From assembly GCA_964016885.1 (NCBI GenBank), contig CAXHJY010001687.1, forward strand, positions 135,281-199,280: DNA of 64,000 bases, written 5' to 3'. Shown in pieces: positions 18,699-25,775 of this stretch; the stretch's first letter is position 1; the number at the start of each line of letters is the position of its first letter. The stretch is from Eledone cirrhosa. Lineage: Eukaryota. Below the pieces are notes generated by a model. The model saw nothing but the letters and a program-made list of their open reading frames with translations. It ran no database searches and was not told the origin of the DNA. The position numbers and the translations under genes are program-made.

Positions 18699-19330
18699 AT
18701 ATTGTTATATTTGGGGAGGGTCATATTTGCGTAATATTGCCAGAATTAATAACAGAACACACTCACTGTTTGGTTGGTTTTCGCTTCTCGCTGTCTTTTA
18801 TATATATATATCTGCGATCTAACTTACTCGGTCTTCAATGTTGCCATTGACTGACCGGCGGTCAAAAATAATACAGATACAATATAGACACGAACACATA
18901 TATATAGTTTACATAATTTACATAAATCTTTCGTTGCACATCTGCAACATCGTCAGTGGTGTTATATTCATTGTTCCTCCTGTTGTGTTGTATGTCTACG
19001 CCATTTTTTTTTTTTTTTTTTTTTTTTTTGTATATATTGTATCTGTATTGTATCTGTATTATATCTGTATTGTATCTGTATTATATCTATATTGTATCTG
19101 TATTATTTTTGACCGCCGGTCAGTCAATGGCAACATTGAGGACCGAGTAAGTTAGATCGCAGATATATATATATAAAAGACAGCGAGAAGCGAAAACCAA
19201 CCAAACAGTGAGTGTGTTCTGTTATTAATTCTGGCAATATTACGCAAATATGACCCTCCCCAAATATAACAATATCTGTTTCGACACACGATTTCATATA
19301 AAAAACCTCGCAAAACTAATTCATCGCCGC
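18699..19330. mobile_element. ORF-less fold-back of the 23003-25775 PLE pLTR
   Basis: arms ~18699-18888 / 19086-19275 plus ~55-nt tail. Confidence 0.85.
18921..18958 (-). ncRNA. hammerhead ribozyme (extra nt after A9)
   Basis: CA-CTGACGA-T-GTTGCA..TGCAAC-GAAA-GATT-TA-TG; the copy at 25539-25576 has C3A. Confidence 0.65.
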
Positions 19331-19880
19331 TATTTATATATATATTTATATATATTTATATATATATATATATATATATATATATATACATATATATTTA
19401 TATATATAAATATTTATATATATATATATATATATATATATATATATATACATATATATTTATATATATATATATATACATATATATTTATATATTTATA
19501 TATATATATATATTTATATTTATATATATATATTTATATATATATATACATATATATTTATATATATATATATATATATATACATATATATTTATATATA
19601 TATATATATACATATATATTTATATATATATATATATATATATATTTATATATTTATATATATATATATATATATATATTATATATATATATATATATAT
19701 ATATATATATATATATATATATATATATATATATATATATATATATTTATATATATATATATATATATTTATATATATATATATATATATATATATATAT
19801 TTATATATATATATATATTTATATTTATATATATATATATTTATATATTTATATATATATATATATTTATATATATATAT

Positions 19881-21266
19881 TTCGTTTCTGAATTTGTTTA
19901 GCAAGAATCTTTATCTGAAATCGTGTGTTGAAACCGATATTGTTATACTTTGGGAGGGTCATGTTGCCAATAAGAAACACACGCACCAGTTGCTTTCACT
20001 TCAATTTAATTTAATATATATTTATAAATTTACAAAGTTATAAATTTCTGGTTGGTTGGTTGGTTCCACAACCAGATAGTTGTTTATATATATATAGTCA
20101 TAGTTCTTTCGTCACACACTCTGTGACCTCTTCAGTGACTGGGGATTTCTTTCTTCGTTTCTGTGCCTTTCCTTTCTTCTATCCTACGTCATTTTGTTTG
20201 TGTGTGGGTTGCGTGCTCAGTTTGCGCATGCGCCCCATCCGGGTGTCTGTGTGTGTGTTTGTGTTCATTTTTCTATTTTTCTATTTATATTTGTTTGTTT
20301 ATTTATTTATTTATTGTTAGACCTGGTACCTCCGTAAAAACACTTATTAGCAAGACATACCCGTTCCAAAGACCCTCATGTATAGATAAGAAATGTATAA
20401 CCTGTAAAATAAGCCCCCATATTAACTGTAAAACTAGAAATGTAGTATATAGCATAAGATGTACTGAAGGACAATGTAGAAACAAAAATATAGTGTACAT
20501 AGGTGAGACAGCTCGTAGTATAGGGGAACGAATAAATGAACACTGGCGAGACCTCCAAGATAGTAAAGAATCATCTGTGCTCTACCAACATGCTAAGATA
20601 GAACACAGGGGTAAATTAGAGAGCATAGAAATAAAAATAGAATCCACACACAAGAAAGACGCAATGTTTAGGCAAATTACAGAGGCAGTAAGCATAAAAG
20701 AATTAAAACCAAAATTAAATAGAAAATATGAGTGGAACAGCAACATCACAACTTACAATTAAGGACAAAATGAAAACACACACACACATAGAACAAACAA
20801 CTTACAATTGAAAACACACACAAAATGAAAACACACACAAGACAAAATGAAAACACACACACACATAGAACAAACAACCAACCAACAATAAATAAATAAA
20901 TAAACAAACAAATATAAATAGAAAAATAGAAAAATGAACACAAACACACACAGACACCCGGATGTGGCGCATGCGCAAACTGAGCACGCAACCCACACAC
21001 AAACAAAATGGCGTAGGATAGAAGAAAGGAAAGGCACAGAAACGAAGAAAGAAATCCCCAGTCACTGAAGAGGTCACAGAGTGTGTGACGAAAGAACTAT
21101 GACTATATATATATATATAAACAACTATCTGGTTGTGGAACCAACCAACCAACCAGAAATTTATAAATTTGTAAATTTATAAATATATATTAAATTAAAT
21201 TGAAGTGAAAGCAACTGGTGCGTGTGTTTCTTATTGGCAACATGACCCTCCCAAAGTATAACAATA
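19881..21266 (+). mobile_element. PLE GIY-YIG fragment flanked by inverted pLTRs
   Basis: NVVYSIRC..VYIGETARSIGERINEH..RQITEA at ~20320-20762; arms ~19936-20317 / 20884-21266. Confidence 0.88.
21060..21104 (+). ncRNA. hammerhead ribozyme (mirror copy 20096-20140 on minus)
   Basis: AGTCA-CTGAAGA-G-GTCACA..TGTGAC-GAAA-GAAC-TA-TGACT. Confidence 0.85.
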
Positions 21267-22532: not shown

Positions 22533-23002
22533 TATATATATATATATATATATATATATACATATATATTTATATATATATATATATATATATATATATA
22601 TATATATATATATATATATATATATATATATATATACATATTTATATATATATATATATATATATATATATATATATATATATTTATATATATATATATA
22701 CCTATATATACATATATATTTATATATATTTATATATACATATATATTTATATATATATATATATATATATTTATATATATATATATATATATATATATT
22801 TATATATATATATATATATATATATATATATATATATATATATATATATATATATATATATATATATATATATATATATATACACACATATATTTATATA
22901 TATATATTTATATTTATATATATATATATATTTATATATATATATATGTAACATATATATTTATATATATATATATTTATATATATATACATATATATAT
23001 AT

Positions 23003-25775
23003 ATAGTTTTGCGAGGTTTTTTATATGAAATCGTGTGTCGAAACAAATATTGTTATACTTGGGGAGGGTCATATTTGTGTAATATTGCCAGAATTAATAA
23101 CAGAACACACTCACTGTTTTGTTGGTTTTCGCTTCTCGCTTCTGTGTCTTTTATATCGGTAATTTAACTTACTCGGTCCTCAATGTTGCCATTGACTGTC
23201 CAATGGTCAAAAATAATACAGATACAATATAGACACAAACACATATATATAGTTTATCATAAATCTTTCGTTGCACACGAGCGAAATTGCACAACAAACA
23301 CACGATGGGAGAGAGAAAATCCTCAACGTTCACATGATGATGTGGACTGACATCCTAAAGCCAAGCAGACGCACTGCCAACAACTTCCAGGCGTCTAACA
23401 ATGGCATACCACCCTTGTATGGGCTCCGCAAAGACCACAAGACAGTCGACGACCCGACAACAGGACCACCAACAAGACCCGTATGCGGAGCTAATATAGC
23501 TAGCAACTACAGGATCTCCTACTTCCTCTCAATGGTTATACGCCCCATAATCAAGATGTCCCCAGATGTATGTGACAGTACAGAGGACCTCCTCAGCAGA
23601 ATCAGTGAGTGCAACAAAAACAGGAGCCTATCCAACTGCATAATAGGCAGCATGGATGTGGTGTCACTGTACCCATCCATTAACATTGATTTTGCTGTGA
23701 AAAGATGTGTGGAGATGATCGTTGAGAGTGAGGTGGAGTTCTGCGACGTCGACACAGACGAACTGGGCCTCCTACTTAGACTTACCTATGACACTGACTA
23801 CCTAGACAGCCATGACCTTAGATGTTTCTGCCCTAGTAGACCTATTAGAGGTAGACCCCCCCACCATAACCTCAATGGCAAAAAGGACTCCCATGGGAAG
23901 GTGGATTGGGTGGACCAAAGCTATACGGACCCCCCAAAACAATGATCAGGTAAGAAAAATGGTCGCACATGCAATAGGGGCTAGTATCAAAACTACCCTA
24001 AAGGGCCACATATTTAAGTTCAATGAGAAAATCTACACCCAAAATGAGGGAGCAGCCATCGGCGTCAGCATAGCTGGTGATGTTGCCAACCTTTTCATGG
24101 TATGGTGGGAAAGGAGACTTAAAGATCTCCTTAATGAAAGCTCCATAGACCTCATCATGTAATCTCGTTATGTAGACGATATCAATATAGTTATAAGAAC
24201 ACCCCCACTAGAGAGCACTAACAAGTTTAATTTAGATCGTAGCACGATGGAAAGCATCCAGCAGATAGCTAATTCCATACACCAGAGTATAACTGTAACT
24301 ATCGACTTCCCTTCCAACCACCCTAACAATAGACTACCTGTATTAGACACAGAACTCTGGATTAACACTATAGACGAGAGAGCCCAAATTCTCCACTCAC
24401 ACTATGCTAAACCCATGGCCTCCAAATACCTGATACTCAAAAACTCAGCAATGTCCAATAGTGCTAAGTTTAATATTCTGATCGCAGATTTGGTACGAGT
24501 GATGAAGAATGTGTCCCGCATGTGCGACCCAACAGAAATGGAAAGACACATCCAACACTTCATCAACCGCATGCAGTTCTCTGGCTACAACCAAAGAGAC
24601 AGAGTCAGAGTATACGAAAGAGCCATGGAAAAGTATAAGACCCTCATAGAACTGGACATGAAAGGAATTTGCCCATTATACAGGAGCAAATCATGGAATA
24701 GCTTAGATAGGGCTAGACATAAGATAGGGAAAGCCACCTCATGGTACGACAACCAGAGATACCAGAGTGTCATGTTTGTGGACGCCACCCCTGATGGGAA
24801 ATTAGCTAACCAGTGTAGAAAGGCCCTGAGAAAGACCCACTTAAAAATAAAGGTGGTAGAAAAGCCATGAACCACCATAAAATCCCTGATCAGCAAAACC
24901 TACCCTTTTAAGAAAACCCACTGTACCAATAGGAAATGTATTATATGTAAGGTGAACCCCCGGATAAACTGTAAAACTAGAAACGTAGTCTATAGCATAA
25001 GATGTACAGAGGGTACTTGCAGAAACATGACAACAACATACATAGGTGAGACAGCTCGTAGCATAGGTGAAAGGATAGATCAACACTGGGGGAACTACTA
25101 TACGAACATGCTAGGCAACAACATGACGGTAACATAGACAACATAGAAATTAGAATAATATCGAAACATAGAAATGACCCAACAGATAGGCAAATCAGAG
25201 AGGCCAGTGAAATAGAAATTAGAAGACCAAGGTTAAACAGAAAGAATGAATGGAATAACAACAACACCCAAACAAACAACACTGACCTAAGAGAAGTATA
25301 AATAAGTAAATAAAATAAAATAAATAAATAAATACATACACAAGCACAATAACAACAAGCACATAAACACACACTAGTCACCCATCACACAGCAAACAAA
25401 ACACTATACACACACGCAAACGCATGCGCAAAGAAGACAAAATAAAATAAACAAACAAGCAAATAAATAAATAAATATATAGACAGACTGAATAAAAATG
25501 GCGTAGACATACAATACAACAGGAGGAAAATATAACACCAATGACGATGTTGCAGATGTGCAACGAAAGATTTATGATAAACTATATATATGTGTTTGTA
25601 TCTGTATTATTTTTGACCGTCGGTCAGTCAATGGCAACATTGAGGACCGAGTAAGTTAGATTACCGATATAAAAGACACAGAAGCGAGAAGCGAAAACCA
25701 ACCAAACAGTGAGTGTGTTCTGTTATTAATTCTGGCAATATTACACAAATATGACCCTCCCCAAGTATAACAATA
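23003..25775 (+). mobile_element. Penelope-like element (disrupted RT + GIY-YIG) with inverted pLTRs
   Basis: LYGLRKDHK, SMDVVSLYPSI, QNEGAAIG, YVDD, VLD, YIGETAR; inverted arm 23003-23277 versus ~25556-25775. Confidence 0.92.

Follow-up and report, generated by a model that had tools for sequence, protein, structure and literature searches.

How does a retroelement come to lie in a tract of TA repeats as two inverted arms, one of which stops at a fixed internal site while the other runs on past it? Three insertions, A, B and C, pose this question within a 64,000-nucleotide (nt) stretch of the Eledone cirrhosa genome (assembly GCA_964016885.1, contig CAXHJY010001687.1, positions 135,281 to 199,280), which we call the window and to which all coordinates refer. 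The inserts have the features of Penelope-like elements (PLEs) with a C-terminal nuclease. On balance, we think it probable that they are 5′-truncated PLE insertions into TA repeats, formed when reverse transcription of a single uncut RNA began from both nicked target strands, at two internal sites.

Insert A spans 18699-19330, B spans 19882-21267 and C spans 23006-25776. Each is flanked on both sides by (TA)n, with tracts at 18370-18698 (left of A), 19335-19881, 21268-21413, 22523-23005 and 25777-25810. End coordinates are ambiguous by 1-3 nt owing to TA overlap, and the insert boundaries given in a preliminary description of the locus are correct within that margin. Read in the element sense, the word ATAACAATAT is present in all six arms. 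It passes directly into (TA)n in the left arm of A (18699, minus strand) and in the right arms of B (21267) and C (25776). The opposite, inverted arm continues past this fixed end before it reaches (TA)n: by 55 nt on the right of A (19275 to 19330; tail at 19276-19330, plus), by 55-56 nt on the left of B (19937 to 19882/19881, minus; tail at 19882-19936) and by 41-43 nt on the left of C (23047 to 23006/23004, minus; tail at 23006-23046, 41 nt, or 43 including the TA overlap). The preliminary description had noted both the fixed AT-rich end, which stands, and the longer inverted arm; its 45-60 nt for the extra length becomes 41-56, and the tail word that it quoted is exact in A and C with one mismatch in B.

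The long arm lies on the minus strand in A and on the plus strand in B and C, and the tail sits on the short arm in all three. In A, the long arm (18699-19011, minus) is the 3′ part of a 5′-truncated pseudo-long terminal repeat (pLTR; 86% identical to C at 25491-25772), and the short arm (19086-19275, plus) matches it at 189 of 190 positions. B has a short arm (19937-20318, minus) followed by a main copy composed of a 5′-truncated open reading frame (ORF) end with a cysteine linker and a GIY-YIG nuclease (20322-20762, plus) and a pLTR (20884-21267, plus); its arms are ~97.6% identical over 386 nt. The short arm of C (23047-23277, minus) starts within hammerhead stem II, and the main copy consists of a 5′-truncated, broken reverse transcriptase (RT)-GIY-YIG ORF (23283-25131, plus; one frameshift, two in-frame stops and a lost nuclease C-terminus) and the 3′ part of the pLTR (25557-25776, plus), with arms ~93% identical over 231 nt, including one 11-nt gap. 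The sequences at which the arms meet differ: B has a clean join, C a short imperfect fold-back with a 7-nt repeat (TTGCACA), and A a run of 27 T followed by approximately six imperfect copies of an 11-nt repeat (19003-19085) that other arms contain once or twice. The reiteration in A suggests polymerase slippage during joining.

Several observations bear on how the inserts and their arms are related. A and C form one family, with arms 86-92% identical (8-12 substitutions and 3 gaps between A arms and C arms). B belongs to a separate family: its untranslated region (UTR) cannot be aligned with A or C, and it is 69% identical to C in the nuclease region, though around the ends identity reaches 84% over 77 nt. 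Because junctions and orientations differ as well, the inserts do not descend from one segmental duplication – one of the outcomes that the preliminary description had named as fatal to its reading – and, as judged from these alignments, A, B and C are independent insertions. Within A, both arms share bases that are in the minority among sequencing reads (2169 of 2877 reads differ at 19244 and 2190 of 3210 at 19264), and both arms of an insert derive from one source copy. Part of the short-arm sequence of B and C is missing from the main copy, and these arms begin far from its 5′ end, which excludes plain fold-back copying of the first cDNA.

The ends recur in other copies. Of 24 listed public sequencing runs, four (X1, X4, X5 and X22) were aligned to 19090-19345, with 152,452 restriction-site-associated DNA (RAD) reads; X1 and X4 are possibly source material and hence not independent support. 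The depth of rightward-reading RAD reads is 3210 at 19264 and has dropped to 2167 at 19276; for a step right after 19275 a bin mean of 2957 would be expected, and 2921 was observed. The step thus sits at the fixed end, which recurs in many copies. A second fall, from 1422 at 19312 to 172 at 19321, together with 34 X1 contigs whose loose (TA)n end lies at 19320, corresponds to the C-type tail end (~19316-19320). In 80 X1 contigs the base at 19334 is A (TATA after 19330), corresponding to the A/B-type tail end (~19330-19333). Two sharp peaks of termini had been predicted; the fixed end forms one sharp peak, and the tails have at least two end points. We rejected read-end peaks at 19227, 19230 and 19321 as element ends: they coincide with AATT, a word that occurs just twice in the aligned stretch, and are taken to be restriction ends of a presumed enzyme. 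A step at 19305 is read as the read-length end of a subfamily whose reads start ~27 nt before 19186.

What, then, is the tail? An ATG 26 nt before the fixed end (at 19250 in A) opens a frame, MTLPKYNNI..., that remains open through the tail in all three inserts; the tails of A and B represent codons 9-27. Over this predicted ORF start, 20 of 27 residues are identical between A and B with no indels, and third positions account for 10 of the 16 base differences (hand count, P ~0.016). Poly(A) was absent at all six insert ends. One contig from X5, a run under another organism label, continues for 255 letters past 19333 (a codon boundary), and the 30 letters shown contain no stop, a weak indication at 10 codons. 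Because the tail is coding, lacks poly(A), has at least two end sites and is read past in X5, we conclude that it is the first codons of the predicted ORF and not the RNA 3′ end, near which the preliminary description had placed the second priming site. Folding revealed no conserved hairpin spanning both ends: the predicted structures differ, at -3.7 to -5.9 kcal/mol (computed without a shuffle control).

To judge from its domains and motifs, the A/B/C element is a canonical C-terminal-nuclease (EN+) PLE. The C ORF encodes RT motifs, a C-x4-C-x2-C linker and a GIY-C..C-YIG nuclease in that order, and B retains the nuclease end. In Pfam searches, PF01541 scored above the cut-off (B, E 2.4e-5) and RVT_1 below it (E 0.008). 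The nuclease of B carries the CCHH signature (C-x4-C between the GIY and YIG words and two later histidines), and seven residues separate the linker from the next cysteine. A search of longer proteins yielded 20 homologues at E <= 1e-3 among 1728 candidates, with the best named homologue, from Octopus vulgaris, 64% identical; the homologues carry a DKSG motif, and in the structure predicted for one of them (pLDDT, the model confidence score, 87) telomerases rank 1-4 among the fold matches. A single ORF with a telomerase-like RT followed by GIY-YIG, an inverted pLTR with a one-sided tail overlapping the ORF start, and a putative Type I minimal hammerhead ribozyme in the pLTR are all in accord with an EN+ PLE and with the Penelope affinity proposed in the preliminary description.

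The candidate hammerheads follow the pattern CUGANGA-stem-GAAA, a minimal-type form described in PMC4209133. The motif is intact in A (18923-18956, minus; CUGACGA core, 6-bp stem II, GAAA) and in both arms of B (core from 20135 in the short arm; 21065-21099 in the main copy, with stem I and stem II), and the first core base is changed in C (25541-25574, plus). Rfam did not detect a hammerhead; its 16 rows were AT-rich, miRNA-like chance matches, none at gathering score. The predicted cut lies 168-224 nt upstream of the fixed end (224 nt in A). The short arms of B and C cross it, so the template was presumably uncut.

Consistent with this assignment, the element has the build of the canonical EN+ unit as drawn for Pen2a_Av, in Fig. 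2 of PMC8557442 and for Penelope: a 5′-truncated main copy, a head-to-head inverted pLTR, a tail on one arm and a pLTR hammerhead. PMC3846280 describes the typical unit as an adjacent inverted pLTR with an optional 31-bp tail on one inverted pLTR, and reports that the pLTR of Pen2a_Av from Adineta vaga holds 12 codons, which the tail extends to 22; in A, B and C the corresponding values are ~9 and 22-27 amino acids. According to PMC8557442, tails are often found at one end only and (TA)n is a preferred target of several clades; PMC2377424 gives the inverted arrangement as the most frequent Penelope structure in D. virilis, and PMC8969392 treats inverted pLTRs with short extensions as hallmarks for curation. 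Unlike the canonical unit, A, B and C have tails of 41-56 nt with at least two end points, as against 30-40 bp, and the (TA)n target leaves no target-site duplication (TSD) visible.

Among named clades, the CX2-5CxxC linker, the CCHH nuclease and the hammerhead recall Nematis and Neptune (PMC8557442). The long linker of ~20 residues seen in Neptune, to which PMC8557442 ties a microsatellite bias, is absent: the gap from CxxC to the next cysteine is 6-9 residues, resembling Nematis rather than Neptune when compared by eye with Fig. S2 of PMC8557442, which also depicts the short CX2-5CxxC linker near the nuclease that we find here. Hydra-clade elements lack CCHH and have a CxCX5C linker and DKT, whereas CCHH is present here and the homologues read DKSG. 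Naiad and Chlamys elements have an N-terminal nuclease and no canonical hammerhead; here the nuclease is C-terminal and a hammerhead motif is present.

The closest biochemical parallel is PAc (Poseidon of Anolis carolinensis), for which PMC11167929 describes, in vitro, nicking and extension of both strands, two internal RT starts that bracket the tail, an uncut RNA and a modelled dimer. A, B and C resemble PAc in that both ends lie in the 5′ part of the ORF, on either side of the tail, and in their AT-rich target and apparently uncut RNA template. They differ in that the PAc start lies 111-118 nt into the ORF and is not homologous to the target, whereas the fixed end of A, B and C lies 26 nt in, at a word that matches the target; the hammerhead overlaps the ATG in PAc and lies 140-200 nt upstream of it here. 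The text consulted of bioRxiv 10.64898/2026.07.22.740005 says nothing further on ends.

The window offers a broader view, as it contains 11 inverted pairs in TA tracts from seven families: A, B, C and eight others (I1, I2 and I4 to I9). A one-sided extension is present in 10 of the 11, with I5 the exception, a count that overstates the case because unequal ends alone would appear one-sided. The short end recurs in a second copy in the A/B/C, I2 and I8/I9 families. It falls on an alternating TA word of at least 3 nt in five of the seven families (4, 2, 5, 3, 3, 1 and 3 nt), against a background of 8.5% of 3778 positions (P 8e-5). Outside A, B and C, direct PLE evidence is limited to I1, which has a hammerhead motif, and I2, whose sequence resembles the terminus of a copy encoding a Hydra-type ORF. 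Junctions in two other families (I1 and I4) are perfect palindromes. Inverted arms were sought in 9795-13110 and 18100-18380 and not found. A general rule that the tail always sits on the short arm was rejected, as other families include long-arm and equal-arm cases.

How might such ends arise? In the account that we favor, the nuclease of the element would nick both strands of a TA tract, and cDNA synthesis would begin from each nick on a single uncut, read-through RNA, at one or other of two sites within the opening codons of the ORF. The first of these would be fixed at AACAAUAU, where 4 nt could pair with an (AT)n primer; the position is observed and the pairing is conjectural. The second would lie 41-45 or 55-58 nt downstream, each time at a TA-like word of 2-3 nt; such a word is seen at the second end in A and C, and TAT follows the longer end in one X5 contig. 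The resulting cDNAs, terminating at different positions, would then be linked head-to-head via end joining or template jumps, which would yield the clean join of B, the fold-back and repeat of C and the T run and repeats of A. These scars suit error-prone joining. Priming from both cut strands, as the preliminary description had proposed, is the likeliest reading by analogy with the in vitro precedent (PMC11167929); twin priming itself we infer.

A number of points weigh against this account. The mechanism for the A/B/C lineage is pieced together from sequence and from analogy with PAc, whose start site is not homologous to the cut DNA (PMC11167929). The strict pairing of one tailed with one tail-less end is drawn from three inserts of the A/B/C lineage, for which chance could account up to 1 time in 8, and is not shown genome-wide. 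Elsewhere in the window, the short arm bears the extension in I2, the long arm does so in I6, I7 and I9, and in I1 and I4 the two arms are equal and one of them is extended (I8 was not scored); other families also have single-arm copies (9797, 13339 and 9612-9757). Strict pairing would also have at least 50% of rightward RAD reads stop at the fixed end, and 1043 of 3210 (32%) do so, a comparison too affected by filter and digest biases to decide the matter. Reads with ~100 nt of TA were possibly filtered or left unaligned, and short reads cannot pair two ends; the RAD subset is depleted of long-tailed copies that keep AATT and so should be enriched for fixed-end stops.

Nuclease trimming also predicts the same ends and overlap equally well. 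Under that explanation, priming would occur once, near the tail end, the second arm would come from template switching, and the tail-less end would be a GIY-YIG cut of the element's own DNA intermediate at AATAT, with the TA-like word at the fixed end explained as well as it is by priming. PMC8557442 proposes ‘EN-mediated resolution’ as the origin of tails, and PAc cleaves its own pLTR DNA at ATT (PMC11167929), yet PAc also gave two RT starts directly in vitro that match genomic tail ends (PMC11167929). The tail moreover contains a longer TA-like word (CATATA, ~19296-19301) at which the reads show no depth step (2097 at 19300; bin mean 2123 over 19297-19305), so that TA content alone sets no end under either priming or trimming. 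We regard trimming as unlikely. Self-priming on, or a switch to, an antisense template (an antisense RNA or a second cDNA), as proposed for rotifer Penelope elements in PMC3846280, could account for the short imperfect fold-back in C and the palindromic junctions of I1 and I4. It would require an antisense template whose 5′ end coincides with the tail end. Neither A nor B has a palindromic junction, and the starting points of the arms are unrelated; we consider this origin improbable.

Least credible, to the point of being very improbable, is that two opposite insertions in one TA tract were later homogenized, or that the inserts reflect misassembly or segmental duplication. Insertions into TA tracts are numerous in the window, but no TA tract separates the arms, which share insert-specific minority bases and yet carry genuine substitutions and indels relative to each other. 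Ten of the 11 inverted pairs, from seven families, show the pattern, and B and C are 69% identical in the ORF.

Priming from both nicked strands invites comparison with the L1 retrotransposon. In L1 twin priming, both target ends prime on one RNA, and the inverted segment is joined by microhomology; one of the primers makes use of the poly(A) tail, the other starts at no fixed site, and each cDNA copies a different part of the RNA. The mechanism proposed for A, B and C would share with L1 the priming of both target ends on one RNA. It would differ in that the starts lie within 60 nt of each other, the same segment is copied and poly(A) is absent. Consistent with a product distinct from the L1 type, the inserts have no poly(A) and overlapping rather than non-overlapping arms, and a TSD is unreadable in (TA)n. 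A literature search for Penelope with twin priming returned no paper on PLE integration, as judged by title or the start of the abstract. Explicit twin-priming wording for PLEs may thus be absent from the literature searched; every ingredient has been published.

A second feature of the element concerns its RT. Motif A and motif B are 129-133 residues apart in the 16 of 20 homologues in which both were found and ~131 codons apart in C, compared with 61 in the Hydra-type ORF of the window. By hand counts from Fig. S1 of PMC8557442, the distance is ~60 in Penelope, Nematis and Neptune, ~84 in Naiad and ~118 in human telomerase. The ~70 extra residues lie at the position of the telomerase insertion in fingers domain (IFD), in C (23670-24065) and in homologues P0004-P0021, and include conserved ELGL..L, CPxR and PTITG words; canonical PLEs are described as lacking an IFD (Craig et al., PMC8557442). 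Although the linker is Nematis-like, motifs A and B are ~70 residues further apart than in two Nematis-clade rows of that figure, and we make no Nematis assignment. A PDB sequence search gave one weak RT match, and an Atlas search with the region of the insertion returned one RT cluster besides clusters without a name; neither identifies the insertion. We found no paper on a PLE lineage with an IFD-position insertion in a literature search whose scope did not extend to Repbase and subscription papers. The long insertion may mark an unclassified PLE lineage.

A bolder formulation, which we consider doubtful, is that this unnamed C-terminal-nuclease lineage with its 70-residue IFD-position insertion integrates by obligate twin priming. 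A dimer would nick both (TA)n strands, one primer would anneal in telomerase-like fashion to a 4-nt AUAU, the second start would lie 41-58 nt downstream, and every two-armed insertion would have one tailed and one tail-less end.

How much of this is new? The preliminary description had held that the arrangement, though known from Penelope, appeared here to be the default outcome. PMC3846280, PMC8557442 and PMC2377424 call the same structure typical for PLEs, so that novelty falls away, and the structure of A, B and C is largely explained by published work. Because it is a published PLE footprint, the finding adds little by itself; the additions are small, namely the one-sided extension in 10 of 11 pairs, the TA-like word at the fixed end in five of seven families and the ~70-residue RT insertion. 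Craig et al. (PMC8557442) assigned the question of how inverted arms form to in vitro experiments, and later integration steps were left untested by Frangieh et al. A high-copy, TA-targeting family with a target-matching start would provide a clean test of priming against nuclease trimming, since altering AUAU in the RNA or in the DNA copy separates the two.

Searches beyond the window addressed the distribution of the element. A 21-nt motif scan of metagenome contigs gave no matches, and protein-based scans gave no loci in metagenomes (0 of 66 candidates), in viral contigs (0 of 4) or in prokaryote genomes, where one of 15 candidates was confirmed. Words nearly identical to those of insert C turned up in runs that carry 16 different organism labels or one metagenome label, with shares of 0.06-0.69 (at least 0.2 in 11 rows).

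The remainder of the window contains further elements in TA tracts. A non-coding, hammerhead-bearing, retrozyme-like palindrome lies in (TA)n at 1491-2475; its two ~460-nt arms meet in a perfect head-to-head junction beginning ~7 nt beyond the tail-less end, and its 66-nt tail repeats the start of the unit. A Hydra-clade-like PLE family occupies 5815-7832, 9797-12928 and 13334-13995, with a CxCX5C linker in the ORF at 11318-12928 (minus); the three copies have an identical end site, and one has an inverted arm and a ~85-nt tail. Decayed Hydra-like PLE ORFs at 4352-5818 and 35316-36347 (minus) each contain an Asn-rich insertion before the linker. The intervals 46229-46446 and 52580-53800 belong to one non-coding family with the same pair of ends and a tail of ~85-95 nt, and inverted pairs in (TA)n at 22014-22522, 31912-33420 and 36593-37676 have one-sided extensions of ~134, 160 and 180 nt.

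The interval 25803-30745 comprises tandem and inverted copies of a 500-600-nt unit around a five-copy, 590-nt tandem array (26929-29960), with both outer ends at the same site. In many (TA)n tracts of the window (e.g., 18370-18698 and 19335-19881), interruptions are mostly TTT on the plus strand regardless of the orientation of the neighboring element, which may stem from sequence error or from biased mutation. Further hammerhead motifs are located at 979 (plus) and 33530 (minus).

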